Assembly (NCBI GenBank): GCA_019638775.1
Contig: JAHBTD010000005.1
Location: forward strand, 3,345 to 67,344
Direction of reading: 5' to 3'
Source of the DNA: Fimbriimonadaceae bacterium
GTDB taxonomy: Bacteria > Armatimonadota > Fimbriimonadia > Fimbriimonadales > Fimbriimonadaceae
Length of the DNA stretch: 64,000 nt
Part shown: positions 9,847 to 46,252 of the stretch, piece after piece
Layout: every line of letters starts with the position of its first letter
How positions within the stretch are numbered: the stretch's first letter is position 1
Translations under genes and position numbers: made by a program
The notes under the pieces: model-generated
Told to the model about the DNA's origin: nothing
What the model saw: only the letters and a program-made list of their open reading frames with translations
Database searches by the model: none

Positions 9847-9847
9847 G

Positions 9848-23501: not shown

Positions 23502-24734
23502 TTAGGACGTTTCTTTGTGGAGGTCCTTTTTAGAATCTGACAGGCCCTTTTCTAGTTCGGACGCAATTCTTCGATATGCTTCTCTGAAGCTGATTCCTTG
23601 CTCTTGTACAAGTTCGAAAGCCCGTTCTGCGGAGTAGAGCGACGGATCCATGGCCTCGGATGTTCTCTGAGCATTAAATTGAACTCCTGGGATGGCATGT
23701 TCCATCACTCGAAGCATTTCCAGTGTGGAGTCAATCATTCTAAAAAGTGGTCCTTTGATAAGTTGAAGATCGCGGTGGTACCCCGAGGTCATCTTGCTTG
23801 TGATTGCCAGGATTGCTTGTAGGTCTGCTGGCGCTTGAGAGGAGTGTCCCCGTACTAGTTCAAAGATGTCGGGGTTTCGCTTTTGCGGCATGATGGATGA
23901 GCCGGTCGTGAATTCCTTAGGGAGCCTAACGAACGCAAACTCTTGTGTTGCATACAGGCAGAGATCGGCGGCAAGCCGTCCGAGATCTTGTTGGACAAGA
24001 CACAGGGCAAAAGCCAAGCTCGCTTCGGCCTTTCCGCGTGAGAGTTGGACAGCGGTGACGGGCTCGTGGGTTTCTTTGAACTGGAGGTCGCGGGTTGTTC
24101 GTTCTCGGTTGATTGGGATACCGGGTGTGCCATACCCCGCTGCCGAACCGAGTGGATTCTTGTCGATGAGGGTTAAGGCCGATTCGATCATTTTGACATC
24201 GTCGGTAAGCTCGGCGGCAAAGCCGTTTGCCCAGAGTGCAACCGTCGAGGGCATGGCTGGCTGCAGGTGCGTGTAACCGGGTAACGGGATATCCCCTTGA
24301 GAGCTTGCAAGCTGCTGCAAAACTGTGACAACGGCGGTCGTGCACTCGGAAGAGATGGCGACGACGTCGCGCAAGTAGAGGCGCAGTGCGGCTAGAACTT
24401 GATCGTTTCGGGACCGGCCAAGATGGATGCGCTCGCCGAGGTCTCCGAGCCAGGCGACCAAGCGATTTTCGATTGCTGTGTGCACATCCTCTTCGTCGAG
24501 TCGGATGGTCCACTCACCTCGGGCGTGTTGTTCGCCAAGCTGCATGAGGGCATCGCAAAGGGAGTCGGACTGATCATAAGTAAGGTGTCCACACTCGGCG
24601 AGCATTGCCGCGTGAGCTTGAGAAGCCCGGATATCGTACGGAACGAGTCGGGCATCAAGAATGTGGTCCTCACCCACCGTGAAGCTTAAAATCAGTTCGT
24701 CGATCGATTCGCCTTTATCCCAGAGCCGTGGCAT
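23502..24734 (-). CDS. argH: Argininosuccinate lyase
   Basis: MPRLWDKG... fumarate-lyase fold with signature GSSIMPQKRNP. ATG 24734 is preceded by AGGAGG with a 6-nt spacer (the track ORF starts at TTG 24740). Confidence 0.9.
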   Translation of the reverse strand: MPRLWDKGESIDELILSFTVGEDHILDARLVPYDIRASQAHAAMLAECGHLTYDQSDSLCDALMQLGEQHARGEWTIRLDEEDVHTAIENRLVAWLGDLGERIHLGRSRNDQVLAALRLYLRDVVAISSECTTAVVTVLQQLASSQGDIPLPGYTHLQPAMPSTVALWANGFAAELTDDVKMIESALTLIDKNPLGSAAGYGTPGIPINRERTTRDLQFKETHEPVTAVQLSRGKAEASLAFALCLVQQDLGRLAADLCLYATQEFAFVRLPKEFTTGSSIMPQKRNPDIFELVRGHSSQAPADLQAILAITSKMTSGYHRDLQLIKGPLFRMIDSTLEMLRVMEHAIPGVQFNAQRTSEAMDPSLYSAERAFELVQEQGISFREAYRRIASELEKGLSDSKKDLHKETS

Positions 24735-25716
24735 GAGCAACCTCCTTTAACAATGCTCTGTAAAATTCGAAGCCCTGTTCAATCTCACTGGCAAGCACAA
24801 ACTCGTCTGCGGTGTGTGACCGGGCGGAAATTCCGGGGCCACACTTGATTGCCGGTACTCCCTGAAAGAAGACTTGGTCGGACATCGTTAGGCTGGCAAA
24901 TGTTTTCGTTCCAGTGCCGATACGTAAAGCAGATTGAACGATTATTGCATCGACGGGGCACTGGTAGGGTTCGAGCCGCGATGAATGTATACGAATTTCG
25001 CCGGCAACGCATTCTTCCAACCTTTCTAACAATTCAGAATGAGTCAGGCCAGGGACGGTTCGAAAATCAAGCTTGGCAGAGGCTTCGGCGGGGACCTGAT
25101 TGTGGGTTGCTGCTCCTTTGAGGACAGTGGGTTGAAGACTTGAGACGCCTAATTGGGGGTGCGGCTCGCCGAGGTCGATCTGCCTTAGCTTCACGATGTC
25201 TTCGGCGAGTCCCCAGACAGGATTGACTGCTCCTAACGAGTTGGCGTTTGCCGCGTGGCAAGCTGTGCCTTGGTGGACCAATTCGAGGATCATTAAGCCT
25301 CTTTGAGCTATTCCAATCTGCAACTCGGTCGGTTCGCCAACGACAACACCATCTGGTTCCCAGCCTTGCTGCTGCAGCCAAGGCCAGGCTATTTCGGTGC
25401 CCTTCCCGCCGGTCTCCTCTTCGCAGACGAGCATCAGGACGACCTCGCACGGTCCGCCTGCTTTTTGGACACCTAAGAGCGTAGCGATCATCGCGGCGGC
25501 GCTGGCTTTTGCGTCGTTGCTGCCGAGCCCGTACACCTTGCCATCGATCGTCTCTACATTCCACGGATCGCGGGTCCACCCGTCGTTCGGAGGGACGGTA
25601 TCAAGATGAGTGTTTAAGAGGATCTTTGGGCCTGATCCTGCTTTGGCGATGACGTTATCGCCGAGACGTGTGACTTCGGCTCCGCTTTCGCGCAAGAGGT
25701 CCTCTACCCAGTCCAT
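24715..25716 (-). CDS. argE: M20-family deacylase (acetylornithine/acetylcitrulline deacetylase ArgE-like)
   Basis: NTHLDTVPP, GSNDAKAS and EEETGG motifs. The frame stays protein-like upstream (LDVLEIHCRLVSIPSVSHQEAQI) with no ATG/GTG/TTG. The probable true start is CTG 25785 (see findings). Confidence 0.8.
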   Translation of the reverse strand: MDWVEDLLRESGAEVTRLGDNVIAKAGSGPKILLNTHLDTVPPNDGWTRDPWNVETIDGKVYGLGSNDAKASAAAMIATLLGVQKAGGPCEVVLMLVCEEETGGKGTEIAWPWLQQQGWEPDGVVVGEPTELQIGIAQRGLMILELVHQGTACHAANANSLGAVNPVWGLAEDIVKLRQIDLGEPHPQLGVSSLQPTVLKGAATHNQVPAEASAKLDFRTVPGLTHSELLERLEECVAGEIRIHSSRLEPYQCPVDAIIVQSALRIGTGTKTFASLTMSDQVFFQGVPAIKCGPGISARSHTADEFVLASEIEQGFEFYRALLKEVAHATALG

Positions 25717-25786
25717 GATCTGCGCCTCCTGGTGGGAGACGGACGGGATGGAAACCAGCCTGCAGTGGATTTCGAGGACGTCCAGA

Positions 25787-26686
25787 CTAAACCTCCTCCG
25801 GCATGAGTTCGGCTTCGTCGAGGACGATCATCGTGCCGCAGCCTTCGTTGGTGAAGACTTCGGTCAGGAGACTGTCAGGCGTCTTGTAGGAGATGACATG
25901 GACGCGGGTGACGGTGCCGTTGAGGGCGTCGGCGATGCAGGCGGCTTTGGGCATCATCCCGTCCTTGAGCGTGCCGTCTTTCTCCAGCTCCTGCAGCTGG
26001 GCGAGCTCAAGATGAGAGATGAGAGTCGTGGGGTCGCCTGGGTCGGTGCAGATGCCAGGAGCCCCGGTGACGAGGATCAGCTTGGCGGCTCCGATGGCGT
26101 TGGCGATGGCGGCGGCGACGGAGTCGGCGTTGATGTTGAGCAGCTGTCCGTCGGCGTCGGCGCTGAGGGGGCTGACCATCGGGAGATAGCCGCTGTCGAG
26201 GAGGTCGTCGAGCACCTTGGGGTCGATCTTGACGATGTCGCCGACGAAGCCGAAGTCGACGGTTTCGCCGTCTTTCGTCTTTCGCGGAGGGCGTTTGGCG
26301 GCGTGGACCAGGCCGGAATCCACCCCGCTAAGGCCGATGACGGGCATGTCCAGTTCGCGGCCTGCGGATAAGAGGGTTGCTCGGGCCGCGCCGAAGAGGG
26401 CGAGCGTCATGGCCTCCAGCATTCCGGCGTCGGTGATGCGGCGGCCTTCGTGGAAGACGGACTGCGCGCCGAGGCGGTCGGCAAGGGCGGTGGCCTGCGG
26501 CCCGCCGCCGTGCACGAGGACGACCTGGATGCCGAGTCGGTGGAGGACGGAGACCTGCTCCAGCAGGGCCTTGGCGTCGGCTTGAGTTTGGATGGCTTCT
26601 CCGCCGACCTTGACGACAAACCGCTGGCCTTGGTAGAGGCGCAGGTAGGGGAGGGCTCTTCTGAGGGCCTCGACGGAACTATGCAT
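25787..26686 (-). CDS. argB: Acetylglutamate kinase
   Basis: RFVVKVGGEAI...VLVHGGGPQ amino-acid-kinase signature. GGAGA SD with a 6-nt spacer. 8-nt overlap with the argF' stop. Confidence 0.9.
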   Translation of the reverse strand: MHSSVEALRRALPYLRLYQGQRFVVKVGGEAIQTQADAKALLEQVSVLHRLGIQVVLVHGGGPQATALADRLGAQSVFHEGRRITDAGMLEAMTLALFGAARATLLSAGRELDMPVIGLSGVDSGLVHAAKRPPRKTKDGETVDFGFVGDIVKIDPKVLDDLLDSGYLPMVSPLSADADGQLLNINADSVAAAIANAIGAAKLILVTGAPGICTDPGDPTTLISHLELAQLQELEKDGTLKDGMMPKAACIADALNGTVTRVHVISYKTPDSLLTEVFTNEGCGTMIVLDEAELMPEEV

Positions 26687-27680
26687 TGGGGTTCTCCATA
26701 AGCTTCATCATCACGGCCTTTTGCACGTGGAGGCGGTTGGCGGCTTCTTGCACCACCACGCTGCGCGGGCCGTCCAAAATCTCATCCGAAATCTCTACGT
26801 TGCGGCGAACGGGAAGGCAGTGCATCGCCTTGGCATCGCGCTGGGCGTTGGCAAACCAGGACTCTTTCAGACACCAATCGCGCAAGCTTGCGCGGGCTTC
26901 GGCCTCCTCGCTTGGCCTGCCGTAAAACTCTGGCGCGGCCCACGACTTCGCATAGACGATATGGGCTCCTTCGGTGGCTTCTTCGCGGTGGTGGGTGACC
27001 TTGAGGCGGTCGCCTCCGATCTGCCTCAGCTCGGAGATCGAACGGTCGGGCAGACCGAAGCCCTCGGGGTACACGACGGTCAGCTCCATGCCGCGAAGGA
27101 GGGCCATCGAGGCGACGCAGAGGGGGACGGCGTAGGGCAGCGGTCGGGGGTGCCATGCCCAGGAGAGTACGAACTTGCCGCCTTCTTTGGGGACTTTCAG
27201 ATCGTTCAGGAGCTTCCAATCGGCGAGGGCTTGGCAGGGGTGGTCGGCAGCCGACTCCATGTTGATGAACGGCTTGGGACAAAGCTTGGCCATCTTGGGC
27301 ATGAGAGCGTCGTCAAGGTCGGTGTCGAGGTCCTTGCCTTCGGCAAAGCATCGGATGCCTAGGAGGTCGCAGTATTGGGCCAGCACGGGGATGGCCTCGC
27401 GGATGTGCTCTTGGGCGCTGCCATCCATCACGACTCCGTCTCTGGTTTCGAGATTCCAAGAGCCCGCTCCTGGCTGGATGACGACGCTGCTGCCGCCGAG
27501 CTGCGACGCGCCAGCCTGGAAGGAGGCGAGCGTGCGCAGGGAGGGGTTCATGAAGAGGAGGCCGACAACCTTGTTCTTGAGGCTGTCGTTGATCGGCTCC
27601 CTTACGAGATGCTGGGCCAGCCGGACGAGGTCTTCGATCTCGTCGAAGCTCAGGCTTTTGAGGGAGAGGTATCGGTTCAT
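26679..27680 (-). CDS. argF': N-acyl(acetyl/succinyl)-ornithine carbamoyltransferase type ArgF'
   Basis: MNRYLSLKS... with NPSLRT (not the STRTR of classical OTC), MESAADHPCQ and HCLPVRRN. The track ORF 26679-28265 carries a spurious 195-codon N-extension antisense-free over argC. Confidence 0.8.
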   Translation of the reverse strand: MNRYLSLKSLSFDEIEDLVRLAQHLVREPINDSLKNKVVGLLFMNPSLRTLASFQAGASQLGGSSVVIQPGAGSWNLETRDGVVMDGSAQEHIREAIPVLAQYCDLLGIRCFAEGKDLDTDLDDALMPKMAKLCPKPFINMESAADHPCQALADWKLLNDLKVPKEGGKFVLSWAWHPRPLPYAVPLCVASMALLRGMELTVVYPEGFGLPDRSISELRQIGGDRLKVTHHREEATEGAHIVYAKSWAAPEFYGRPSEEAEARASLRDWCLKESWFANAQRDAKAMHCLPVRRNVEISDEILDGPRSVVVQEAANRLHVQKAVMMKLMENPNA

Positions 27681-27682
27681 CG

Positions 27683-28738
27683 CTATGTCCACCCCACGGC
27701 GGCCTGCATCAGACCGGCAGTCTCGTCGAAGCCGAAGATTCGGTTCATCCACTGGATACCGCCCCCGGCTGCGCCCTTGATGAGGTTGTCGATGACGCAG
27801 ACGACGGCGACCTGCGTTCCTTGGGCGGCGATGCCGATGTGCGCCCGGTTCGACCCGGCGACGTGCTTGACCGACGGCATGCTTGCCGAGACCGAGATGA
27901 ACGGACAGTCGGCATAGAAAGCCGTATAGCTCTCGATCAATTCTTCGGTCGTCGCAGCCGATTGGGTTTCCGCATAGACGGTGGCATGGATGCCGCGGGC
28001 GAACGGTCCGGAGTGGGGAAGGAAAACGAGCTTCGGCTCGCCTTCCGGCCTGAGCCGACCGAGGAACATCTTCATCTCGGGCGTGTGCCGATGCTTCAGA
28101 AGCTCGTAAGCCCACATGCCGCTGTGGCGATCGGGGTGGTGGGTGCCGGATTTGGGCGTGCGACCGCTGCCTGTGCTTCCGGTGACGCCGTTTACGACAA
28201 AGCTCGATGCCAGCCCAAGGGCGGCAAGCGGGGCGCAGGCCAGGGTCGCGGCGGTGGTAAAGCACCCAGGCTGGACAGCGTGCTTCGGCACGGGGGCTTT
28301 GTGCAGCTCGGGGATGGCGCAGGTGAATTCAGAGAGGAGTTCGGGGGTGGGATGCGATATTCCGTAGATCTCTTCAAACTGCTTCGCGTCGGCGTAGCGG
28401 AAGTCTGCTGAAAGATCCACGACCTTCATTCCGGCAGGGCCGCTTTCGATCCACTGTTTCAGGATTGGGGCGGCTTCGCCGTGGGGAAGCGCGGAGAAGA
28501 GGGCGACCTGATCTTGCTTTGCCGCATCGGCGAGACTGTTGTCGTTTGTATCGAAGGCCAAGCTTTTTGACACCCCGGCAAGGTGGGGGAAGATGTCGCC
28601 CACTTGCTGCCCCGCTGCGCTCTGCGACACGACGCTGGTCAGCTCGAAGTGGGGGTGAGCGAGCAGCAGGCGAATCAGCTCGCCCGCAACGTATCCGGTG
28701 CCGCCGAGCACAATAGCGGGAATCTTTTCAGACGGCAT
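27683..28738 (-). CDS. argC: N-acetyl-gamma-glutamyl-phosphate reductase
   Basis: IVLGGTGYVAGELIRLL Rossmann start. Active-site region QPGCFTTA. 351 aa. Confidence 0.9.
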   Translation of the reverse strand: MPSEKIPAIVLGGTGYVAGELIRLLLAHPHFELTSVVSQSAAGQQVGDIFPHLAGVSKSLAFDTNDNSLADAAKQDQVALFSALPHGEAAPILKQWIESGPAGMKVVDLSADFRYADAKQFEEIYGISHPTPELLSEFTCAIPELHKAPVPKHAVQPGCFTTAATLACAPLAALGLASSFVVNGVTGSTGSGRTPKSGTHHPDRHSGMWAYELLKHRHTPEMKMFLGRLRPEGEPKLVFLPHSGPFARGIHATVYAETQSAATTEELIESYTAFYADCPFISVSASMPSVKHVAGSNRAHIGIAAQGTQVAVVCVIDNLIKGAAGGGIQWMNRIFGFDETAGLMQAAVGWT

Positions 28739-29684
28739 GGGCTACCCCCAAGGCGTCGCGCACGCATTCGGCGAGCTTTGCCGCTTCGGTTCGGGCGTTG
28801 ATGCCTTTGACTCCCGTGCGGCTGAGGATCACGCTGGTTCCGGCAGCGTTGTCGGTGGCGGGTCCGGTGATGACGGTGGGCTTGAGCCCGAAGTCTCGGC
28901 TGAGCAGCTCGACCCCGCCCCACGCGCCTACTGGGTCGCCGGCGGCAAGGACGATCGCGGAGAAGCTGCGGTTGAGCTGGGGGTCTTGCAAGATCGCGGA
29001 GACGCCGTATTCGCCGATCAGGCCGTCGCCGAGCTCCATCACGATCACATCCGGCTTTTCGGCGGCTAGCCGATTGAGCATCGTTCGTGCCAGGGTTGCC
29101 GCGTTGGCGGGGGAGGTGGTGACGATGCCGAGGTCGGTGAAGATAATGGTCTGGCGCGCGCCCGCGTCCTCCATCGCCAGCACGTCGCGGCGCAGGCTCA
29201 CGCCGGTGGATTTTGCGGCGGCAACGCTGAGGCCGCTCCTGACCAGCTGCTCGATCAGGGAGATGCAGGCTTCGGTCTTGCCGGAGTTCATGCTGCTGCC
29301 GACCACGCCGATGACGGGTGTGCCGTTGACGGTCAGCGAGTCGTCAAGCTGCGGGAGGTTCTGGGCGATGTTGGCGGGGACGCCCTTGCGGCTGGCGAGG
29401 TAGGGGAAGTCGAGCACTTGGCCCAGCACTTCGCATTCGAACGGCGGACCAACGAGCGGAGAGTAGGAGGTGCATTGCCCGAGCACTCCACCCATGTTCA
29501 GGAGATTGATCTTGTCGCCGGTCTTGAGCTTTTCTGGGATGACGCCCGCGTAGCCTTGAACGGCGTTGCGGTGCCCCAGCGCTCCGGCGATCACGTCGCC
29601 CGGCTTGATGGCGGACATGCGTCCGGTCGTGAGCTCCAGGGCGTTGTAGGCGCTTTTGGAGTTGAGCACTCGGACGGCGATCAC
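28728..29684 (-). CDS. P-loop (SIMIBI-like) protein of unknown function embedded in the arginine operon ('X')
   Basis: Walker A-like GVVGSSMNSGKTEA and Walker B-like PDVIVMELGDG. Overlaps the argC start by 11 nt. The frame is protein-like for 34 more codons upstream, to CTG 29786 with GGAGG 6 nt upstream. Confidence 0.7.
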   Translation of the reverse strand: MIAVRVLNSKSAYNALELTTGRMSAIKPGDVIAGALGHRNAVQGYAGVIPEKLKTGDKINLLNMGGVLGQCTSYSPLVGPPFECEVLGQVLDFPYLASRKGVPANIAQNLPQLDDSLTVNGTPVIGVVGSSMNSGKTEACISLIEQLVRSGLSVAAAKSTGVSLRRDVLAMEDAGARQTIIFTDLGIVTTSPANAATLARTMLNRLAAEKPDVIVMELGDGLIGEYGVSAILQDPQLNRSFSAIVLAAGDPVGAWGGVELLSRDFGLKPTVITGPATDNAAGTSVILSRTGVKGINARTEAAKLAECVRDALGVAHAV

Positions 29685-29782
29685 ATCCCCCTCTTCGCAC
29701 GGGAAGCTGTTGTCGACTTTGACATCGCGGCGCAGTCGGCAGTTTGCCGTGACCGAAGCGATCTTGTCGAGGAAGACGGTTT

Positions 29783-31207
29783 TCAGGAGTGACCTCCCCT
29801 TGTGGCTTGACCGTCCGCGGGAGTGGCATGGGCGTCTCGCCCATGCGTCCCATGACCGTCTCGGTCATGGCTGTTCTTTTCCACGGGCGGGACGCCCGTG
29901 GTACGCATGGGCGAGACGCCCATGCCACTTTCCGGCTCCTCAAAATTCTTGGGTGCAATGCTTGGGGGTTCTTTCTTTTCAGAAGCAGAGACGCCCATGC
30001 CACTTTCGTCTGTGCCACCTCCAACTCTGGCAGCCAAGATCGTGGGCAGGCCGCAGATTCTGCCAAAGCCTTTAGCGTCTTCGGGGGTCCACTCCCCAAC
30101 CGCCTCGCCATAGACAGCTCGCGATGCGGCATGGAGGGAGTGGGGCGAGGCGACGCCTTCGACGAAGACCGAGCCCTGCCTGAGCAGCAGATGCACCTTG
30201 CCGGTGACCCTTTGCTGGGACGAAGTGAAGAACGCCTCGATATCTCGGCAGGCAGGCTCCAGCAGTAGCCCCTCATGCACCATGTCGCCATAGGCGGCGG
30301 CAAGCTGATCTTTGAGGGCGATCTGTCGCTTGGTCAGTACCAGCTTCTCCAGTTCGCGATGGGCGGCGATGATGACGGTCGGGGCGGGGGCCTCGAAGGC
30401 GACGCGGCCTTTGATACCGAGGATCGTTTCGCCGAGATGGATGCCGCGACCGATGCCATAGCTCCCAGCAATCTCGTCGAGTCTTTCGATGAGATCGATG
30501 GGGCGCATCGACTCGCCATCCAGCGCGGTGGGGATGCCTTGCGTGAATTCGAGAATGAGCCTCTTTGGCGTGAGCGATCGGTCGAATGCGTCCTTGGTGC
30601 GCACCCACTGGTCTTCGGGAATTGAGAGTTCGGTCCCGGTGGTTTCTGCGCCGCCGATGGTGATTCCCCAGATGCCGCTGTTGACGGAGTAGGCGCTGCC
30701 GTGGCTGGGGATCGGGAGGTTTCGGGCTTGCAGGTAGGCCACCTGATCCTCGCGCTTGGGGGCGTCGTCGCGGACGGGGGCGAGGATTTCGAGGTCGGGG
30801 GCGAGGGCGCGCAGGGCGACCTCAAAGCGAATTTGGTCGTTTCCGGCGGCGGTGCATCCGTGGGCGACGGCCTGGGCTCCCAGCTCCTTCGCCATGCGCG
30901 CCGACTCCTGGGCCTGGAGGGTTCGCTCCACACCCACGCAGAGCGGATACAGATTCCCGCGCAGCACGTTGCCGGCGATGAGGTGTTTCAGGGCTTGGTC
31001 GAAGAGGGCTTGCTTCGCATGAATATGCACATGCTGAGACGCGCCCAACGCCTTGCTTCGGGCTTCCAACTCCTCCAGTTGGGCCGGAGAGAACCCGCCG
31101 ACATCCACCGTCACGGTGACGACTTCATAGCCCTTTTCGATGAGGTAGGGGACGCCCCAGCAGGTGTCGAGTCCCCCCGAAAAGGCGAGCACGGCCTTCC
31201 TACACAT
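29783..31207 (-). CDS. argG: Argininosuccinate synthase with a repeat-derived C-terminal extension of about 79 aa
   Basis: MCRKAVLAFSGGLDTC... N-type ATP-PPase motif. ATG 31207 overlaps the argR stop. The canonical sequence ends near ...LPTILAARV. The rest (GMGVS..., HGRDAHAT) translates the palindromic repeats. Confidence 0.9.
   Translation of the reverse strand: MCRKAVLAFSGGLDTCWGVPYLIEKGYEVVTVTVDVGGFSPAQLEELEARSKALGASQHVHIHAKQALFDQALKHLIAGNVLRGNLYPLCVGVERTLQAQESARMAKELGAQAVAHGCTAAGNDQIRFEVALRALAPDLEILAPVRDDAPKREDQVAYLQARNLPIPSHGSAYSVNSGIWGITIGGAETTGTELSIPEDQWVRTKDAFDRSLTPKRLILEFTQGIPTALDGESMRPIDLIERLDEIAGSYGIGRGIHLGETILGIKGRVAFEAPAPTVIIAAHRELEKLVLTKRQIALKDQLAAAYGDMVHEGLLLEPACRDIEAFFTSSQQRVTGKVHLLLRQGSVFVEGVASPHSLHAASRAVYGEAVGEWTPEDAKGFGRICGLPTILAARVGGGTDESGMGVSASEKKEPPSIAPKNFEEPESGMGVSPMRTTGVPPVEKNSHDRDGHGTHGRDAHATPADGQATRGGHS
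29823..30003. repeat. Cluster of four perfect 9-bp-stem/3-nt-loop palindromes plus one half-site (REP/BIME-like)
   Basis: A 29826-29846 GCATGGGCG-TCT-CGCCCATGC. B 29850-29870 CCATGACCG-TCT-CGGTCATGG. C 29881-29901 CCACGGGCG-GGA-CGCCCGTGG. D 29905-29925 GCATGGGCG-AGA-CGCCCATGC (inverted copy of A including flanks). Half-site CGCCCATGCCAC at 29992-30003. Confidence 0.9.
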
Positions 31208-31664
31208 TCGCCGTCTCCCGACCGCTGAGCGCGAGGAGCTTTTGCCAGACCTTGTCCTGGTCGGCGGCGGAGGCGGTGGCGATGAAGATCGTGTCGTCTC
31301 CGGCGATGGTGCCCACGAGCTCGGGCCAGCCAAGCTGGTCGATTTGAACGGCGACCAGGTTCGCCGCGCCGATGAGCGTTCGCAGGACAAGCAGGTTGGG
31401 TCCGGCGGGTTGGAACGAAAGGATGCCTTCGATCTTTTGAGGGATGCTCTGAAGACTCTCGCCCATGAGCACATACCGTCCGCCGACCTTGGCGACGCCG
31501 AGGTCGTGTAGGTCTCGGGAGATGCTGCTCTGGGTGACGGAGAAGCCTTGGCTCTCCAGCGCCGCGACGAGATCCTCCTGACGCTCGATCACTTCGCGCT
31601 GGATCAGCGACGTGATAGCGGCAAGTCGTGTTTTGCGAAGGGAGTCGTCACGGCTCATGCGCAT
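31200..31664 (-). CDS. argR: Arginine repressor
   Basis: Winged-helix N-domain (LVAALESQGFSVTQSSISRDLHDLG) and C-terminal oligomerisation domain (GTIAGDDTIFI). First gene of the operon. Confidence 0.9.
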   Translation of the reverse strand: MRMSRDDSLRKTRLAAITSLIQREVIERQEDLVAALESQGFSVTQSSISRDLHDLGVAKVGGRYVLMGESLQSIPQKIEGILSFQPAGPNLLVLRTLIGAANLVAVQIDQLGWPELVGTIAGDDTIFIATASAADQDKVWQKLLALSGRETANV

Positions 31665-31720: not shown

Positions 31721-33085
31721 TCACCGCATCAGGTGCCAGCCAAGGATAGCGCCATAGCCGACGAACACAAGCGTGAACAGGCAATTCAGCATCACATGCC
31801 CGATCTGCAAGAAGGGGCTGCTGGGCCAGTCGCTGCTCTTGAAGTAGAAGGAATCGACGCCGAGCCGGAACCCCCAGAACAGGAAGATCACGGTCGAGAT
31901 CGAGAGTCCGGCGGGTGTGCCGTGCAGAATGTCGGGATGGAGGACGAGCGTCAGCACGCCCCAAGAAACGATGGTGAAGACGATGAACGAGCCATAAGTC
32001 CACATCAGTTTGTGGTTGAGGCTGCTCAGGCGGGGAAGCTCTTCTCGCCATTTCAGCCGGGTGGGTACCTGGAAGCTAGCGGCAAGGATGAGGATCTGGG
32101 CGATGGCGAGCAAATAGATGAGAATGGACAGCGCCTGTTCGACCCCAATACTGAGCATTGCGCCGCGCAGCCACTCCATCAGGGGCCAGATCACCACGTG
32201 CCGAAACGGGCCGTGAAAGAGGATGGGCAGAGGGCCGAGGATGGCGAGAATCACCCAGAGCGGATGCTTGATCTTGAACCTGCGCTCGGCGAACATGAGG
32301 ATGCCCTGCACGGCAAAGTAGAGCAGAGGCAGGCCGTAGCCCGCTCCGGCAGGGAAGCTGATGGCGAACTCGTGCAGCAAGCCGGAGATAAGGAAGATCG
32401 CAAAGACGGCACCTCGCATCCCGAACGTTTTGGTGAGCCATGGCAGGAAGAAGATGCGGTCGAGCTCGACGAACGGGCGGTTCCATCGGCGGGTCCAAAA
32501 TTCGCTCAGGGTTTTGGACCGGTAGGGCGCGTCGAAGAGCGGCTTGACCTTCCATCCGGAGGTCTTGGCAAGGTCGGAGAGCATGTCGGAGAAGCCGAGA
32601 TGGATGGCGGTGAGGATAGCGAAGATGGCGATCCATTCGGCAAGGTCTTGGTTCAGCCGATTGCTGAATCCAGCAACGACTAGGAGCACGAGGGTTCCGC
32701 AGAGGAATCTGACCATTCCCCCGGCAAAGCGTTTGGCGTCGGTGGCGAGGGGGCTTGGCTTTTCGGCAAATGGGGTGGGGTCGATCCCTGGCCATACCGT
32801 CGCATAAAACAGTAGGCCGGGCCAGTACATCTTTTGCAGGTCCTTCAAGGGTTGGCGAAGTAGCGAGGATGCCTTGAATACAAACAGCAAGGCAAGGGCC
32901 GAAGCCGTCAAACGCTGATAAGGACTCCAGTTTGGGGCTTGAAGGAGCGTGAACAGGACTGCTGCACAAGGGATCGCGCCGGAGAGAAACTTGCGAAACT
33001 TATCCTCTTTGAGAATGAATGCGAATGCCCAAGCCGCAGCCAACGAAGCGCCCCACATCGCTATGAAAGCCGACCACGCTTGCAT
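31721..33085 (-). CDS. MBOAT_2 / wax-synthase-like membrane O-acyltransferase
   Basis: Polytopic membrane protein with LSEFWTRRWNRPF and SGLLHE motifs characteristic of the MBOAT_2 family. Confidence 0.7.
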   Translation of the reverse strand: MQAWSAFIAMWGASLAAAWAFAFILKEDKFRKFLSGAIPCAAVLFTLLQAPNWSPYQRLTASALALLFVFKASSLLRQPLKDLQKMYWPGLLFYATVWPGIDPTPFAEKPSPLATDAKRFAGGMVRFLCGTLVLLVVAGFSNRLNQDLAEWIAIFAILTAIHLGFSDMLSDLAKTSGWKVKPLFDAPYRSKTLSEFWTRRWNRPFVELDRIFFLPWLTKTFGMRGAVFAIFLISGLLHEFAISFPAGAGYGLPLLYFAVQGILMFAERRFKIKHPLWVILAILGPLPILFHGPFRHVVIWPLMEWLRGAMLSIGVEQALSILIYLLAIAQILILAASFQVPTRLKWREELPRLSSLNHKLMWTYGSFIVFTIVSWGVLTLVLHPDILHGTPAGLSISTVIFLFWGFRLGVDSFYFKSSDWPSSPFLQIGHVMLNCLFTLVFVGYGAILGWHLMR

Positions 33086-33128
33086 AGCTCATTATCGCTG
33101 AACTTGAACGCGCGCGGCGCTGACTGCG

Positions 33129-34001
33129 CTACAGCTTTCGCGAGAGTTGGTCTCGCTGCCCGTGCAAGAGGGCCGAACCATCTTCATAAAGGCTCAGAAC
33201 GCCGTATCCATTGTTAGCCTGTCCAGTTCCCTCCACCACCGCACGGAGCGTCACATAATGCGTTTCGGCGAGCTTGACGTAGGCGTTTTCGTGGGTGTGA
33301 CCTTGGAGCACAATGCGGACGTTCTTGGCATCGTCGATGGCTTGGCGGACCTTCGCAGCGGAGGCAACGCCCGTAGAAGGTCGCGAGGCACCTGTCCAGT
33401 CGATCCGCTGATGGACGCAGACGAGCACATGCTTCTTGGTGTTTGAGAGCTCTTGCCTCAGCCAGTCGATCTGCCAATCGGGAATGCTGGTGTCGGTCCA
33501 CACGAAGTTTCCGGCATCGTAGGGGGTGCCGTCGGCTTTGTGGCAAGCGTCGAGGATGATCGCTTTCCAGTGGTCGAGTTCCAGCGTCGTGTGCCCGGTC
33601 TTCTGTCCGACGGCTTGCAGGAAGTCTGCTCGCTTGACCTTGGCGAGGCAGTGGTTGCCGAGCGTGAATCTCTGCACGGGCGACATCTGGCTAATCTCCC
33701 CAAGAGCCGCCTTCAGAAATCGCATTTCGTCTTCGGCTGTCGCCTGGTCGGCGGAGTCGATGAGGTCACCCAGCTCGATGAGAGCGTCGATCTTTTCGGT
33801 CTGGAAGTGCTGTCGCGCCTCTTCGATTTTCGGGAGAGACTCTCGGTAGAAGCGGGTGCCCCGGGCGGGGGCGTCGGCGTAATGGATGTCGGTGAGGAGG
33901 CCGATCCTTTGGGGCGCGACGGGCAACCAGGAGGCGGCCTTGGACCAGGGGGCGAGGAGCAGGGCTCCGCTGGATATTAGGAGATCGCGTCGGGTTAGCA
34001 T
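33129..34001 (-). CDS. Tat-signal metallophosphoesterase
   Basis: MLTRRDLLISSGALLLA twin-arginine leader. Metallophosphoesterase motifs DIHY, GDLID, GNH and GHTHEN. Confidence 0.8.
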   Translation of the reverse strand: MLTRRDLLISSGALLLAPWSKAASWLPVAPQRIGLLTDIHYADAPARGTRFYRESLPKIEEARQHFQTEKIDALIELGDLIDSADQATAEDEMRFLKAALGEISQMSPVQRFTLGNHCLAKVKRADFLQAVGQKTGHTTLELDHWKAIILDACHKADGTPYDAGNFVWTDTSIPDWQIDWLRQELSNTKKHVLVCVHQRIDWTGASRPSTGVASAAKVRQAIDDAKNVRIVLQGHTHENAYVKLAETHYVTLRAVVEGTGQANNGYGVLSLYEDGSALLHGQRDQLSRKL

Positions 34002-37364: not shown

Positions 37365-38327
37365 TTACTGCTGTTGCTGTTGAGTTTGGGTTCGGGCCTG
37401 ATCGTCGATCATCTGTGGGGCGCGAGATGGGATCTTGGCAAACACAGGAAGGTCCAAGCTGCCAAAGGAGTTTCGTAGCTCATTCACTGCCATCCTCTCC
37501 GTGATCGACGTGCGCACAGACGCCGTTAGAACTTCCGTTGCACTGCCTCGATAAACGCCCTTGTTTGGGGGCACGTCGTCGTAGTTCCGTCCGTGGGCGA
37601 CCACGACGTATCGCTCGTCAGGGACGCATTGGTTCGTCGGATCGTAGGGCATCCATTCGCCGGTGGGCGTTAAAAACTCAACCCAGGCGTGGCTTTCGGA
37701 GGCGACCTCTCCCTCACGGAAGACGTGCAGATAGCCGTTTACATACCGCGCCGGAACGCCCTTCAGGCGGAGTAAGCCGATCATGATTTGGGCGATGTCT
37801 TGGCAGACACCCGCCTTATGCTTTAGGGCATCTTCAACGGTAGAGTTGTACTGGGTGACCACGGGGTTGTAGGTGATCTCATTTTCGATCAGGTGGGCAA
37901 TCTCCTCGGCGATCTTGCCCACAGGCTCGCCACTCTTGCTTTTGAGCTTCGATGAGAATTTGAGCAAGCTCGGCGAATCTTTGATGGGCCCGCCAAACAG
38001 CAAGAAGTCTTTTTCGGTTGTAAAGCCTTCGGTATGGAGCGGCTCGGTCGGCAGATCTTCGAGGTTGCAAGCAGCGGGCTGGGTTTCTACAATAGAGCGG
38101 GCAAGAACCTCAATCTCCTTGTGGTACTTGGGGATGCCGAAATGGTGGACGGTGTTGCCCAGCCAGTCGGTGAAGGTATGGACCTTCGTGGGCGGTCCAA
38201 CAGCCAGAAAAAAGCTACGCACGATCTGCTGACGTGTGCTTTTGGGTTCAATCCAAAACTCCATCCACGATTCGCTGATGAAATCGGAATACTTAAACTG
38301 GATACGGTGTTCTATTTCGAGGGTCAT
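37365..38327 (-). CDS. Transglutaminase-like cysteine peptidase family protein (with Bact_transglu_N)
   Basis: N-terminus MTLEIEHRIQFKYS... Catalytic triad context GVCQD, SHAWVEF and YDPTN. Confidence 0.85.
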   Translation of the reverse strand: MTLEIEHRIQFKYSDFISESWMEFWIEPKSTRQQIVRSFFLAVGPPTKVHTFTDWLGNTVHHFGIPKYHKEIEVLARSIVETQPAACNLEDLPTEPLHTEGFTTEKDFLLFGGPIKDSPSLLKFSSKLKSKSGEPVGKIAEEIAHLIENEITYNPVVTQYNSTVEDALKHKAGVCQDIAQIMIGLLRLKGVPARYVNGYLHVFREGEVASESHAWVEFLTPTGEWMPYDPTNQCVPDERYVVVAHGRNYDDVPPNKGVYRGSATEVLTASVRTSITERMAVNELRNSFGSLDLPVFAKIPSRAPQMIDDQARTQTQQQQQ

Positions 38328-38333
38328 CTCGGC

Positions 38334-39296
38334 TTATAACTCCTGGTCGGGGCTTGTCATGGCCTCGTGCACTCGTGTAAGCGTATCGAGGGAATCGTTA
38401 ATAAATTGAGTGATGTCCTTACGGTCGAGAATCTCTTCTTGATCGTATTCGAGCGTCGCCGCGAGCTTTCCGATTTCGCGCGTTGCGGACTTTACTCCTG
38501 GTCCGTGTGGCGGCAATTGTTTGAGGTAGCCAAGCATTCGCCGCACGCCGCAGTTGACGGTTCTCGGTGCGCCAGGATGAAAGACGAAGAACTCCAAGAC
38601 ATTGCGTCGCTCAAATCGCGGACCGTACATCTGGCGGTAGTTTTCCAGCGATGCGAGGTTCGACAGCAGACTACGCCACCCGGCAAAGTGAAGCGGTGAG
38701 GCGGTGTCTTCGGAGGGGACTTCCAAGCTTGGGAGTCTTGCGCCAAGGACGATGAGCGTTCGTTGGGTGCGCTCCATCGCTTCGCCGAATTTGTGATAAC
38801 ACCAGCCTTGGTCGCGGGTGAGCGTATGTTCAATCGCGCCTAGCGTTGTGAGCAAATCCCGTTGGCAAGCCGCGACCGCTTCCAGGGCGTGGCCTTCATC
38901 CCGGTACTTCCTCCCCCCAGGACGCTGCAGCCCTCGGTAAGCGTGGTTCAGGTTGTAGATCACCTCGCGCGTCATGGTTTCGGAGACGGCACGGGCGTTT
39001 TCTCGGGCCTTGGCGACGCTTGAAATCACCGACACCGGGTTCTCAGTGTCGAGCAAAAAATAGTTCAAGTAGCGCAGGCAAACGTCGGACTTCGGAGTTG
39101 TCTTGATGTTGTGCCCTTCGGGAACAGGGAAGCAGTGGGTAAGGAAATTCCACTCTTCATTCGCCCGATCATTGTCTAGTCCGGAAAGTTCAATGTAGAA
39201 CTCACTGGCCACTTTGAGCTGGCGCCCGCTGTTTTCGGCCCGCTCTAGAAAGCGGCCCATCCAATAGAGATTGTGTGCAACGCGTGACAGCAGCAT
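38334..39296 (-). CDS. Alpha-E domain protein (DUF403)
   Basis: MLLSRVAHNLYWMGRFLERAEN... is the alpha-E N-terminal signature. 1-nt gap to the upstream ATP-grasp gene. Confidence 0.85.
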   Translation of the reverse strand: MLLSRVAHNLYWMGRFLERAENSGRQLKVASEFYIELSGLDNDRANEEWNFLTHCFPVPEGHNIKTTPKSDVCLRYLNYFLLDTENPVSVISSVAKARENARAVSETMTREVIYNLNHAYRGLQRPGGRKYRDEGHALEAVAACQRDLLTTLGAIEHTLTRDQGWCYHKFGEAMERTQRTLIVLGARLPSLEVPSEDTASPLHFAGWRSLLSNLASLENYRQMYGPRFERRNVLEFFVFHPGAPRTVNCGVRRMLGYLKQLPPHGPGVKSATREIGKLAATLEYDQEEILDRKDITQFINDSLDTLTRVHEAMTSPDQEL

Positions 39297-39297
39297 A

Positions 39298-40731
39298 TTA
39301 GGCTTGTTCTCCTATCACCCAAGTGTCTTTGCTTCCCCCACCTTGACTGGAGTTGACGACGTAAGAGCCCTCGCGCAGAGCGACTCTGGTGAGTCCTCCG
39401 GGCAAGACGCGGATTCGATCCCCATAGACCACAAACGGCCTGAGGTCGACCCGTCGAGCTTTATACTCCCCATCGAGGTAGGTTGGGTGAGCGGAGAGCT
39501 GAATAAGCGGCTGGGCAATGTAGTGGTCTGGATCGTCCTTGATCTTCTTTGCGAATTCCTCGCGCTCAGCTTGGGTTGCCATCGGCCCCATGAGCATTCC
39601 GTAGCCGCCCGCTCCGTCGGTCATCTTGACGACGAGCTTGTCAAGGTTCTCAAGCATGTATTTGCAGTCCTCAGCGAGGAAGCCTTTGTACGTTGGAATC
39701 TGCTCGATGATGGGCTCTTCATCCAGGTAGTAACGGATGACGTCGGGAATGAACGGATAAACGGCCTTATCGTCGGCGACTCCGGCTCCCGGTGCATTAA
39801 CAATTGCGACGTTGCCTTCGCGGTAAGCATTGATCAATCCTGCGACGCCGAGGATCGAATCGCGTCGAAACACGAGCGGGTCGAGATAAGGATCATCGAG
39901 TCGGCGATAGACGACATCAACCTGTCGGCGGCCTTCGGTCGTACGAACGTAAACGTGGTTTTCTTCGACGACGAGGTCGGAGCCTTCCACGAGCAGCGCG
40001 CCCATTTCCCTGGCGAGGAAGCTGTGTTCGTAGAATGCCGAGTTGGCGCGTCCGGGGGTGAGCACGACGACTAAGCCACGCATCGAGTTTCGCGGCGAAA
40101 CGAACTGAAGGCAGTCCAACAGCATGTCCGGATAGTTTCGGACGGGCGCTACCGAGTATTTCGAGAAAAGCTCGGGAAATGTGCGTTGAAGAATATTTCG
40201 GTTCTCGACGACGTAGGAGACTCCGCTGGGACAGCGACAGTTATCCTCAAGCACAAGGAACTCACCTTGCTCGCCACGGATGAGGTCGGTTCCTACGATG
40301 TGAGTAAAGACATCGTGGGGAGGTGTAATACCCAAAAGCTCACGACGATATTCGGAACGCGAGAATATAAGATCCCACGGTACGACCTTATCGTGCAGAA
40401 TCTGCTGCTTCGAGTAGATGTCCTTTAGAAAAAGGTTAAGGGCTGTGACTCGTTGGATGAGTCCAGCTTCAACCGTTTCCCATTCTTTGGACGTAATGAC
40501 GCGCGGCACGAAGTCAAAGGGGAAGATTTTCTCTTCCCCGTCTTCTTCGCCGTATACGTTAAAAGTGATGCCTTGATTCCGAAGCGAAACATCTTGTAGC
40601 TGCCCCCTTTGGCGTATCTGCTTAGTTGTTAATTTCCCGAGAGCGCTGGTGATCGGAGCGTAATGCGGTCTGGGGACGCCGTTGGAATCGAAGGACTCGT
40701 CAAATCCAGTGAGCTTAGTAGTCCATTCCAT
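39298..40731 (-). CDS. Circularly permuted type-2 ATP-grasp protein (DUF404/DUF407)
   Basis: 477 aa. N-terminal ...VPRPHYAPI...LRNQGITFNVYG... pattern typical of CP_ATPgrasp_2. First gene of the triad. Confidence 0.85.
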   Translation of the reverse strand: MEWTTKLTGFDESFDSNGVPRPHYAPITSALGKLTTKQIRQRGQLQDVSLRNQGITFNVYGEEDGEEKIFPFDFVPRVITSKEWETVEAGLIQRVTALNLFLKDIYSKQQILHDKVVPWDLIFSRSEYRRELLGITPPHDVFTHIVGTDLIRGEQGEFLVLEDNCRCPSGVSYVVENRNILQRTFPELFSKYSVAPVRNYPDMLLDCLQFVSPRNSMRGLVVVLTPGRANSAFYEHSFLAREMGALLVEGSDLVVEENHVYVRTTEGRRQVDVVYRRLDDPYLDPLVFRRDSILGVAGLINAYREGNVAIVNAPGAGVADDKAVYPFIPDVIRYYLDEEPIIEQIPTYKGFLAEDCKYMLENLDKLVVKMTDGAGGYGMLMGPMATQAEREEFAKKIKDDPDHYIAQPLIQLSAHPTYLDGEYKARRVDLRPFVVYGDRIRVLPGGLTRVALREGSYVVNSSQGGGSKDTWVIGEQA

Positions 40732-43984: not shown

Positions 43985-44506
43985 ATGGCAGAACCGTTCA
44001 TTGGTGAAATCAAGCTTGTGCCCTATAACTTCGCCCCGCGAGGGTGGGCCTTCTGCAATGGGACACTGATCTCTATTGCTCAGAACACCGCGCTTTTTGC
44101 GTTGCTTGGGACGATGTATGGTGGCAACGGGCAGACGAATTTTGCCCTTCCCGACCTGCGTGGCAGGGGGGCGATCTCATCGGGGCAAGGGCCAGGCCTG
44201 AGCAACTATAGCCAAGGAGAGACCGGAGGCGCCGAGAACGTCACCTTGACGACAGCAGCAATGCCAGCTCACGGACACTCAGCACAAGCTTCGTCGGCAT
44301 TTGGCACACAGGGCGACCCGGCAGGAGCCCTTCCGGCTAAGTCACCACTTGCGCTTGGCTATGCCTATCGCTCGGGCGCAGGGGGCACGATGCCGAGTGA
44401 TGCCGTTAGCAGCGTAGGCGGAGGACAACCGCATACGAATCATCAACCCTATCTGGTTCTTAACTACGTCATTGCGATGGTGGGGATATTTCCGCCGCGT
44501 AACTGA
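43985..44506 (+). CDS. Phage tail collar domain protein (MdpB-like), paralogue 1
   Basis: MAEPFIGEIKLVPYNFAPRGWAFCNG...NFALPDLRGR...GGGQPHTNHQPYLVLNYVIAMVGIFP. No signal peptide. Confidence 0.9.
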   Translation: MAEPFIGEIKLVPYNFAPRGWAFCNGTLISIAQNTALFALLGTMYGGNGQTNFALPDLRGRGAISSGQGPGLSNYSQGETGGAENVTLTTAAMPAHGHSAQASSAFGTQGDPAGALPAKSPLALGYAYRSGAGGTMPSDAVSSVGGGQPHTNHQPYLVLNYVIAMVGIFPPRN

Positions 44507-44527
44507 TGCAAATCGAAGGAGAATTTT

Positions 44528-45040
44528 ATGGCAGATCCTTTTATTGGTGAAATCCGACCGGTACCGTACACCTTTGCTCCTCGGAACTGGGCGTTTTGCA
44601 GCGGGCAACTCCTCCCAATCAATCAGAACCAGGCGCTCTTCTCGCTGATTGGCACGACTTACGGCGGCAACGGTCAGACCAACTTCGCCCTTCCTGACCT
44701 TCGTGGACGTGTTCCGATGAGTTCGGGAACGGGTCCTGGTCTATCCTCGAAGACTTTGGGGGAGAAGGCCGGAGTGGAGACGGTGACGCTTACGGCAAAC
44801 GAGATTCCGGCGCACAACCACCCGGCGAACGTATCCGTACAGCCTGCTGATCAGTACTCGCCAGGATTGCTTTTGCCTGCGGTTTCACCTCGGCAACTTT
44901 TTGCACCAGGGCCGACGGGCGCATTTGCCCCTGGGATGATTACGAACACTGGCGGCAACCAGGCGCACAATAATCTGCAGCCCTATCTCACGATCAGCTT
45001 TGTCATCGCTTTGACAGGGATTTTCCCGCCGTTGAACTAA
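44528..45040 (+). CDS. Phage tail collar domain protein (MdpB-like), paralogue 2
   Basis: MADPFIGEIRPVPYTFAPRNWAFCSG...NFALPDLRGR...GGNQAHNNLQPYLTISFVIALTGIFP. AAGGAG SD with a 6-nt spacer. Confidence 0.9.
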   Translation: MADPFIGEIRPVPYTFAPRNWAFCSGQLLPINQNQALFSLIGTTYGGNGQTNFALPDLRGRVPMSSGTGPGLSSKTLGEKAGVETVTLTANEIPAHNHPANVSVQPADQYSPGLLLPAVSPRQLFAPGPTGAFAPGMITNTGGNQAHNNLQPYLTISFVIALTGIFPPLN

Positions 45041-45064
45041 CGATTACTTTGGAGACAGCAACTC

Positions 45065-45592
45065 ATGGCAGAACCATTTCTTGGAGAGATTCGACTGGTG
45101 GCATTCAACTTTGCGCCACAAGGCTGGGCTACGTGTTCAGGGCAACTCTTGCCGATAGCACAGAACGACGCTTTATTCGCGCTGATCGGAACGATCTATG
45201 GCGGCAACGGGCAGACCACCTTCGCCCTTCCTGATTTTCGGGGCAGGGTCGCAGTCTCTCACGGGCAAGGTCCTGGCCTGAGTAATTATCTGCTTGGGCA
45301 AGCGTCGGGTAGCGAGGGCATCACCCTCTCTACCAACCAGATACCTACGCATAACCACACGATGGCGGTGTCGAGCAATACGGCGACGACGAGCGACCCA
45401 CGAAACGGTGTCTTTGCAAAGCCGAACGTCAACCCAAGAATGCAAAATCTGTATGGCAGCCCGGCAAATGTTGCGATGGAAGGGGACACGATTGGCGCCG
45501 CGGGTGGCAGCCAGCCTCACGAGAATCGTCAGCCCTTTTTGTCCCTGCTTTACGTGATCGCCCTCCAAGGAATCTTCCCCAGCCAGAACTAA
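45065..45592 (+). CDS. Phage tail collar domain protein (MdpB-like), paralogue 3
   Basis: MAEPFLGEIRLVAFNFAPQGWATCSG...TFALPDFRGR...GGSQPHENRQPFLSLLYVIALQGIFP. Confidence 0.9.
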   Translation: MAEPFLGEIRLVAFNFAPQGWATCSGQLLPIAQNDALFALIGTIYGGNGQTTFALPDFRGRVAVSHGQGPGLSNYLLGQASGSEGITLSTNQIPTHNHTMAVSSNTATTSDPRNGVFAKPNVNPRMQNLYGSPANVAMEGDTIGAAGGSQPHENRQPFLSLLYVIALQGIFPSQN

Positions 45593-45610: not shown

Positions 45611-46252
45611 ATGCAAGACGCTAAGAAAACACAGATACCGAGAAGGGCCTTCCTGCAAGGCGCTACTGCCGCTGTTGGAACCACTTTGTTGGGGCTTGCC
45701 CCGGCCTCCTCTCTCGCTTCAGGCCTTCAAAAAGGGGGCGGACCGCTGAGTGCGCAAAGCTCTTTTTCCATCGGCTATTGGGATGGGCAGATGTTCACCC
45801 CTGCTGGTGAATTGGCCACTGGCGATGCGACGCTTGATGTCGTGAACCTTCACCTCCGTGGCTATGGACCGAACGGGACGCTTAAAGGGATTGACGCGAA
45901 TGCGCTGGTACCGATGGGCAAGAGCGTTCAGAAAGTTCCCTTTACAGCTTGGGTTGCTGGGCCGTCGGGCTGCGAGCAGGTGAGATTCAACATGACAGTT
46001 GATGGTAATCACGGGCTCGTGTTGACTGCGCGATTTTTGGCAGGCAAGCTGGAGTCTGTAACCGACTTTTCATTCATCGCTGGAAGCGGGAGTGGGCTGA
46101 AGCTTCGAGAAGGAGTCTATGTGATCGCGAACGGGTCGATGAACTGGGGTTCGTATGCTTACGACGCCAGTAACATGGAAGCGCCGCTTACCGGGCCAGC
46201 GGGTCCTGTAGCCTCCCTTCAGTACGTCGTTCTGACTGTCTCTCGAACGTGA
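45611..46252 (+). CDS. Tat-signal secreted protein, unknown function
   Basis: Twin-arginine leader IPRRAFLQGATAAVGTTLLGLAPASSLA. 213 aa with no recognisable domain. Confidence 0.7.
   Translation: MQDAKKTQIPRRAFLQGATAAVGTTLLGLAPASSLASGLQKGGGPLSAQSSFSIGYWDGQMFTPAGELATGDATLDVVNLHLRGYGPNGTLKGIDANALVPMGKSVQKVPFTAWVAGPSGCEQVRFNMTVDGNHGLVLTARFLAGKLESVTDFSFIAGSGSGLKLREGVYVIANGSMNWGSYAYDASNMEAPLTGPAGPVASLQYVVLTVSRT

Follow-up and report, generated by a model that had tools for sequence, protein, structure and literature searches.

How the first step of arginine synthesis, the N-acylation of L-glutamate, is carried out in a bacterium whose arginine genes are packed into a single operon is the question raised by a gene cluster of a Fimbriimonadaceae bacterium (Armatimonadota; assembly GCA_019638775.1). 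The cluster lies in a window of 64,000 nucleotides (nt), the whole stretch of DNA that was analysed (positions 3,345 to 67,344 of contig JAHBTD010000005.1), and consists of eight head-to-tail genes on the minus strand in the order argR-argG-X-argC-argF′-argB-M20 deacylase-argH. Pfam and NCBIfam models name seven of the eight products, X being the exception. Gene X (28728–29786, minus strand) encodes a protein of 352 amino acids (aa), read from a CTG at 29786 to a TGA at 28730–28728, and is here predicted, with a probability that we put at about 0.7, to specify a non-GNAT N-acyl-L-glutamate synthase with a fold not known for this reaction, which takes the place of ArgA or ArgJ in step 1. The core of this prediction has already been published as a preprint and the idea is not new; the comparison of the two proteins is given below, together with the evidence from gene context, neighbouring enzymes and predicted structure that bears on the assignment.

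The position of X among arginine genes recurs far beyond this genome. The family is very large, since X matches upwards of 6,800 clusters at 90% identity as well as 1,489 representatives at 50% identity with E-values up to 1e-3, and at least 580 species-representative genome stretches encode a relative (580 of the 600 candidates listed). A survey of genomic context over 80 loci from a species-representative genome collection found argC directly after the X homologue in every case (80/80), in six or more phyla and in taxa including Armatimonadota, Planctomycetota, Acidobacteriota, Myxococcota, Gemmatimonadota and Gammaproteobacteria (Woeseiaceae, Steroidobacteraceae and Chromatiales). The pair argR-argG lies upstream in 72 of the 80 loci; downstream are argB (64/80), argF′ (61/80), argH (55/80) and an M20 deacylase gene (35/80). 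The usual gene order is argR-argG-X-argC-argD-argF′-argB-(argE)-argH, where the gene of about 1.2 kb that most loci carry between argC and argF′ is a class-III aminotransferase gene, argD. Relatives of 30–38% identity are still found in arginine clusters, in arrangements such as argG-X-argH-M20-OTC-carAB and argG-X-OTC (OTC, ornithine carbamoyltransferase) and argR-argG-argH-X-argC. Such linkage to arginine genes, found in six or more phyla and at identities as low as 30%, means that X cannot owe its place to chance. A preliminary description of this DNA had proposed co-expression of X with the arginine enzymes and had suggested looking for linkage of its homologues to clusters of the argF′ type; the packed operon and the comparative linkage support the former, and the argC and argF′ counts bear out the latter.

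The fullest of these clusters encode ArgB, ArgC, ArgD, ArgF′, ArgE, ArgG, ArgH and ArgR beside X and thereby cover all steps but the first. Because X co-occurs with the class-III aminotransferase in most clusters and with the M20 deacylase in 35, it is neither ArgD nor ArgE; every other step has its gene, and therefore the N-acylation of glutamate alone remains for X. A natural fusion of 626 aa (P0209), in which an X domain and an amino-acid-kinase domain resembling ArgB form one protein, ties X to the adjacent ArgB reaction. Metagenomes from three or more samples contain it on four contigs (genes at 8001–9881 of locus L082, 6077–7957 of L083 and 402–2282 of L084), where the gene stands by itself, in divergent orientation to a gene of the arginase family. 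In addition, an archaeal branch with 31–34% identity to X is linked to one or two RimK-type ATP-grasp ligases, the gene groups lying at 5984–11316 in L087 and L088 and at 5001–10260 in L090. The archaeal group also encodes a protein of 270–279 aa without a Pfam match and a Peptidase_C39_2-like protein, and in L087 and L088 a deacylase of the AstE/AspA family, which acts on N-acyl-Glu/Asp. These neighbours fit the chemistry of N-acyl acidic amino acids, and together the genes may form a pathway for such an amino acid or for a peptide of this kind. As evidence from gene context, both this RimK-linked branch and the fusion to a kinase domain are new.

The published prediction concerns ACG33_RS14135 (A0A127FCT3) of Steroidobacter denitrificans, which Price et al. 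(‘GapMind 2026’, Appendix 2; bioRxiv 10.1101/2024.10.14.618325) predict to be an alternative N-succinylglutamate synthase. Their arguments are the operon context and the observation that homologues of this protein and homologues of ArgA never occur in the same genome; they also report a remote Foldseek match of the Steroidobacter protein to the D-glutamate acetyltransferase 7XRJ (E = 1.4e-7, with an rmsd of 5.6 Å), and their reasoning on residue 92 of ArgF′, which includes two homologues with Gln, is the same as that given below (10.1101/2024.10.14.618325). A search of the literature found no paper besides this preprint that mentions the ACG33_RS14135 protein. X almost certainly belongs to the predicted alternative ArgA family of Price et al., because homologues from five Steroidobacteraceae loci (L057, L071, L075, L076 and L080) align with it over their full length at 51–53% identity (residues 1–351 of X) and stand in the same gene context; a reciprocal homologue search from the L075 protein recovers the X family. 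Common to the published family and X are a hypothetical protein encoded in an argR/argG/argC/argD/argF′/argB/(argE)/argH cluster and a linked ArgF′ that lacks Glu92 and in a few cases has Gln. X differs from the Steroidobacter protein in being a member from the Armatimonadota, in an operon that lacks argD and contains an M20 deacylase gene, in the rare Gln92 of its ArgF′ and in a CTG start that follows a repeat insertion.

The acyl group that X would transfer can be approached through ArgF′, the N-acylornithine carbamoyltransferase encoded at 26679–27680 on the minus strand (NCBIfam NF003384, 349 bits). In the Xanthomonas enzyme it is Glu92 that decides between acetyl and succinyl specificity, according to Shi et al. 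(2007) as cited in bioRxiv 10.1101/2024.10.14.618325. When position 92 is read by alignment to the Xanthomonas N-acetylornithine enzyme (PDB 3kzc), the 61 linked ArgF′ proteins have Ala (50), Val (6), Ser (3), Pro (1) or Gln (1) and none has Glu. That the ArgF′ proteins encoded beside X homologues carry Ala, Val, Ser or Pro here makes succinyl the probable acyl group for the family as a whole. The ArgF′ of the window carries Gln92, as does that of one other Fimbriimonadaceae genome (one of the 61 linked loci), and for this genome the group would therefore be succinyl or acetyl. The same protein has Glu at the position of the carboxylated Lys302 of the Xanthomonas enzyme, which is Val in most relatives.

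The structure predicted for X by AlphaFold (mean predicted local distance difference test score, pLDDT, 93.5; predicted template modelling score, pTM, 0.90) consists of an all-beta N-domain (residues 1 to about 150; DNA about 29337–29786) and an alpha/beta P-loop domain (residues about 155–345). The beta-rich domain ahead of a P-loop domain that had been described from the translation is thus present in the model, as are the Walker A motif (G163-x5-G169-K170-T171) and the Walker B-like motif (E251-L-G-D-G), both invariant across the family. A conservation profile built from 67 diverse relatives, down to 27% identity, has K170 and K192 in all 67, T171 and E251 in 66, D201, R73 and E51 in 65, and S11 in 64; judged from these alignments, the conservation of S11, E51, R73, K170, K192, D201 and E251 is enzyme-like. 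Foldseek matches of the whole model (E about 2e-6) are confined to the C-domain and comprise proteins of the SIMIBI class, namely GTPases of the signal recognition particle, dethiobiotin synthetase, HypB and MipZ, among the best 50 of the 197 matches with E < 1e-3 (E up to 5e-5 in the 50 listed). The suggestion of a SIMIBI-type fold of a BioD/CobQ/DUF1611-like kind therefore holds in respect of SIMIBI proteins and BioD, and is not supported in respect of DUF1611 and DgcN. Sequence searches of the PDB with X alone and with the 67-sequence profile gave only P-loop-level similarity to BioD, FtsY and MobB. That X resembles no recognised Arg enzyme was confirmed in so far as no family model of Pfam or NCBIfam covers it, MobB alone appearing and below its cutoff, and neither a GNAT nor an ArgJ domain was found in it by Pfam and NCBIfam at E-values up to 0.01. 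Individual Pfam scans of the 67 relatives gave weak matches to MobB in 30, to CbiA in 23 and to DUF1611_C in 16.

From what is observed, namely that gene X exists, that it and particular residues of its product are conserved, that it is linked to the operon and that its product has the fold class described, we propose a reaction, an acyl donor and substrate-binding roles as follows. X would be translated by coupling to argG, its CTG start overlapping the stop codon of that gene. L-Glutamate would be held by the beta-rich N-domain, in which S11, E51 and R73 are invariant, and the dethiobiotin-synthetase-like P-loop domain would hold the nucleotide end of an acyl-coenzyme A (acyl-CoA), from which the acyl group would be passed to the alpha-amino group of glutamate. 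The product would be the substrate of the ArgB encoded downstream, and the pathway would run from acyl-glutamate through ArgB, ArgC, ArgD (encoded elsewhere), ArgF′ and the M20 deacylase to ArgG and ArgH. Classical N-acetylglutamate synthases are of three kinds: ArgA, in which a kinase-like domain is joined to a GNAT domain, short enzymes with the GNAT domain only, and the bifunctional ArgJ. X would share with them the reaction and the place in the pathway, and the P0209 fusion parallels the two-domain layout of ArgA; it differs in having no GNAT or ArgJ domain and would be a non-homologous replacement.

A number of observations weigh against this assignment. The preliminary description had arrived at glutamate N-acylation from a likeness to DgcN (DUF1611, PF07755/PF17396; PDB 7XRJ), a D-glutamate N-acetyltransferase as described in the GapMind preprint (10.1101/2024.10.14.618325). 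DgcN does have a SIMIBI-like P-loop C-domain and does N-acylate glutamate, but it serves the catabolism of D-Glu whereas the presumed substrate of X is L-Glu in a biosynthetic pathway. No match of X to PF07755 was obtained, 7XRJ is not among the best 50 of the 197 Foldseek matches (E < 1e-3), and the 67-sequence profile retrieves no DUF1611 or DgcN chain from the PDB even at E = 10. The DUF1611_C matches of the 16 relatives lie in the P-loop (best E 1.3e-5), the one that was located covering profile positions 10–48 of 201. The N-domain of X, being all-beta, is unlike PF17396, the N-domain of DUF1611, which we take to be Rossmann-like. The similarity of X to DUF1611 is thus at the level of the P-loop class; membership is not supported and the N-domain is unrelated, so that the DgcN rationale is weak, as is the connection of X with the sole acyltransferase of this fold class to have been characterised. 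The N-domain, which keeps a pLDDT of 93.5 when modelled alone, has no significant Foldseek neighbour in the PDB (best E = 0.8, TM-score < 0.22). The identity with the A0A127FCT3 family is one that we infer through the Steroidobacteraceae homologues and the matching context. As had been stated earlier, the window lacks ArgA, ArgJ and a class-III aminotransferase, which holds for the open reading frames (ORFs) that were scanned (five ORFs of at least 800 aa and two short ORFs were left unscanned); the absence of ArgA and ArgJ from 64 kb says little about the whole genome, and the only GNAT among the scanned ORFs is a generic protein of 158 aa (46249–46725) with weak RimI-like similarity, in an unrelated gene group. 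Finally, the P-loop domain of X keeps all the Mg-nucleotide catalytic residues of BioD, and these residues fit ATP chemistry at least as well as the binding of CoA. The idea that X is a non-canonical L-glutamate N-acylating enzyme is thus weakened in its DgcN argument but is strongly supported by comparative evidence, namely the argC linkage in 80 of 80 loci, the retention of X in clusters that have argD and argE, the kinase fusion and residue 92 of ArgF′.

The last of these points makes ATP-dependent ligation a serious alternative, because the C-domain keeps the complete BioD Mg-nucleotide set. According to this alternative, which we hold to be rather unlikely, X would be an amide ligase of the dethiobiotin-synthetase/CobQ type that phosphorylates free succinate or acetate and passes the acyl group of the resulting acyl phosphate to the amino group of glutamate; acid set free by the M20 deacylase would be used again, and acyl-CoA would not be needed. 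The best structure and profile matches of the C-domain are indeed dethiobiotin synthetases and other nucleotide-dependent SIMIBI enzymes (Foldseek 3of5 and 1dts, E about 3e-6, TM-score 0.53–0.60), and it is with the BioD structures (1dts, 1a82, 3of5 and 3fgn) that this domain obtains its best target-normalised TM-scores. An hhalign comparison with E. coli BioD, the sequence of which was checked against PDB 1a82, places K170 with K15, T171 with T16, K192 with K37, D201 with D54 and E251 with E115, the full set of phosphate, Mg and transition-state residues, each kept in at least 65 of the 67 relatives; this alignment has a probability of just 67% over 101 columns, which counts against too much reliance on it. 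X and BioD have in common the G-x5-GKT P-loop and the equivalents of K37, D54 and E115, but BioD lacks the N-terminal beta domain, which gives X 150 extra residues, its identity to X is 14–21%, and its substrate and genomic context differ; the BioD model PF13500 has no match in X and weak ones in five of the 67 relatives. In BioD, CobB/CobQ, CTP synthase and adenylosuccinate synthetase an oxygen is phosphorylated and a nitrogen then attacks, and this logic is what the acylation of glutamate by X needs. To our knowledge, on the other hand, every known N-acylglutamate synthase uses acyl-CoA, and DgcN, the only enzyme so far characterised that resembles X in its P-loop domain and catalyses a comparable reaction, is described as an acetyltransferase. 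A P-loop can also bind the phosphates of CoA, and nucleotide specificity is unreadable from sequence. Were the ligase chemistry correct, X might conceivably, though this is a tentative thought, found a new class of step-1 enzyme in which a beta domain that lacks a relative of solved structure is combined with a BioD-like ATPase that works through an acyl phosphate, while the archaeal branch beside the RimK-type ligases would make other N-acyl acidic amino acids or peptides.

The weak similarities of X to MobB and CbiA in Pfam and NCBIfam, the presence of HypB and MipZ among its Foldseek matches and the existence of homologues that bear the name MobB could also be taken to mean that X is an accessory nucleotide-binding protein, either a metal or cofactor delivery factor for the M20 deacylase in the manner of HypB, UreG or MobB or a nucleotide-sensing regulator of the arginine enzymes. 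We regard this as quite improbable. In 45 of the 80 clusters, all the gammaproteobacterial ones included, X is found although no M20 gene was detected (some of these loci end earlier), and a metallochaperone for the M20 enzyme is rejected on account of that persistence. The conserved S11, E51 and R73 of the N-domain resemble a small-molecule site, and an accessory role would leave step 1 without a gene and the ArgB-like fusion unexplained. The scores of X against the MobB models, 24.4 bits for PF03205 (cutoff 26.6) and 22.3 bits for TIGR00176 (cutoff 76.2), are below the curated cutoffs; the resemblance consists of the P-loop class and a weak Pfam/TIGRFAM similarity over about 95 residues, whereas MobB has about 170 aa and no N-domain, and there are no molybdenum-cofactor genes near X. 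Two homologues, P0082 and P0103, carry the GenBank name ‘molybdopterin-guanine dinucleotide biosynthesis protein B/MobB’. Because the MobB models score below their cutoffs, this name is probably a spreading annotation error. Less probable still, and in our view scarcely credible, is that X replaces another step such as ArgD or ArgE, a possibility also raised in the preliminary description, or has a function unrelated to arginine. The operon of the window has no argD, and S. denitrificans is reported to be without ArgE (10.1101/2024.10.14.618325), but replacement of either enzyme is contradicted and ruled out by the co-occurrence of X with both; a P-loop fold is moreover implausible for a transamination that depends on pyridoxal phosphate, and the breadth of the arginine linkage speaks against an unrelated function.

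Alignments of X with thirty homologues of 346–366 aa begin at residue 1 (LKTVFLDKIASVT in X vs MRTVYLDKIASVT), residues 7–37 of X being highly conserved, and the protein is for this reason best taken as 352 aa from CTG 29786. Of the two lengths that had been considered, this is the one upheld; the other, 318 aa from GTG 29684, was discarded since it would lose residues 1–34, conserved ones included. The GenBank entry MBX3120504.1 (hypothetical protein KF784_15705) is identical to the 318-aa form, and its gene model is accordingly 34 residues too short. Upstream of 29684, the frame of X has no ATG, GTG or TTG as far as the preceding stop at 29867. In L081 (GCA_006365015.1), a close relative with proteins 72–91% identical, by homology to which the gene boundaries of the window were refined, the X homologue starts with TTG at the same position and overlaps the argG stop; in the window the CTG of X and the argG stop overlap as cTGa.

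An insertion of 230 nt (29787–30016, minus strand), missing in L081, separates X from the native part of argG. It is made up of palindromic repeats resembling repetitive extragenic palindromic (REP) elements, with the core GGCATGGGCGTCTCGCCCATGC and inverted arms of 49 nt, and the repeat has no other copy within the 64-kb window; the RNA fold of the insertion has an energy of -137.6 kcal/mol (z = -9.95). The insertion is open in the frame of argG and adds a tail of 75 residues, so that ArgG has 474 aa vs 399 aa, and it ends in a Shine-Dalgarno-like GGGGAGGT 5 nt before the CTG of X. As the translation of argG ends exactly at the start of X despite the insertion, we infer that translational coupling of the two genes has been preserved. 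The operon has a second apparent CTG start, that of the M20 gene at 25785. Both CTGs are 5 nt past a Shine-Dalgarno sequence of the GGAGG type, and each lies either right at the stop codon of the gene before it or immediately behind it. The CTG of the M20 gene is kept in L081 (at about 10002), residues encoded ahead of the first ATG are conserved, and 25785 is the probable start of this gene; its database gene model in L081 is probably too short as well.

The remaining genes of the operon, all on the minus strand, complete the picture. The first is argR (31200–31664; arginine repressor, Pfam PF01316 and PF02863), just upstream of which a promoter scan places a promoter-like site at 31695–31666; no terminator-like site was found inside the operon on the coding strand. 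It is overlapped by 8 nt by argG (29783–31207, native part 30017–31207; argininosuccinate synthase, PF00764 and PF20979), whose product is 91% identical to that of L081 over residues 3–397. X is followed by argC (27683–28738; PF01118 and PF22698), the ATG of which opens an 11-nt overlap with the end of X, and argF′ begins after a gap of 2 nt. The next gene, argB (25787–26686; N-acylglutamate kinase, TIGR00761, 195.6 bits and above cutoff), overlaps argF′ by 8 nt. The compact arrangement that had been reported for the operon, with X between argG and argC, an 11-nt overlap with the start of argC and overlaps or gaps of at most 2 nt, was confirmed; the junction of argB and argE had been called ambiguous, and this ambiguity disappears if argE starts at CTG 25785, 1 nt past the argB stop. 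The argE-like gene for the M20-family deacylase (PF01546 and PF07687) extends over 24715–25785 from that CTG or over 24715–25716 from an ATG; its NCBIfam matches to ArgE and DapE are all below their cutoffs, and its expected substrate is N-acylcitrulline. It is overlapped by the last gene, argH (23502–24734; argininosuccinate lyase, PF00206). The absence of argD from the operon is shared with a few other loci.

Outside the operon, the stretch 31721–34001, between an alcohol dehydrogenase gene and argR, encodes a membrane protein of 454 aa that resembles MBOAT_2 and a phosphoesterase of the calcineurin-like kind, neither of which has a gene at that position in L081. At 37365–40731 are three genes, whose products are an ATP-grasp protein in circularly permuted form, a protein with an Alpha-E domain and one that resembles transglutaminases; in L081 this trio is missing between the GSDH and DUF1800 genes. 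Three tandem paralogues of 170–175 aa with a phage tail collar domain are encoded at 43985–45592, followed by an ORF of 213 aa and by the GNAT gene at 46249–46725.

If X is indeed the N-acyl-L-glutamate synthase predicted here, at least 580 species-level genomes would enter arginine biosynthesis by way of an enzyme that has no kinship with any known N-acetylglutamate synthase. They belong to phyla widespread in soil, sediment and water (Acidobacteriota, Planctomycetota, Armatimonadota, Myxococcota and Gemmatimonadota, besides marine Gammaproteobacteria), and a recurrent gap in metabolic reconstructions, in which such organisms look like arginine auxotrophs, would be filled. Thousands of annotations as ‘hypothetical’ or ‘MobB’ would be corrected, and a function would be provided for a protein family that has neither a Pfam nor an NCBIfam model.

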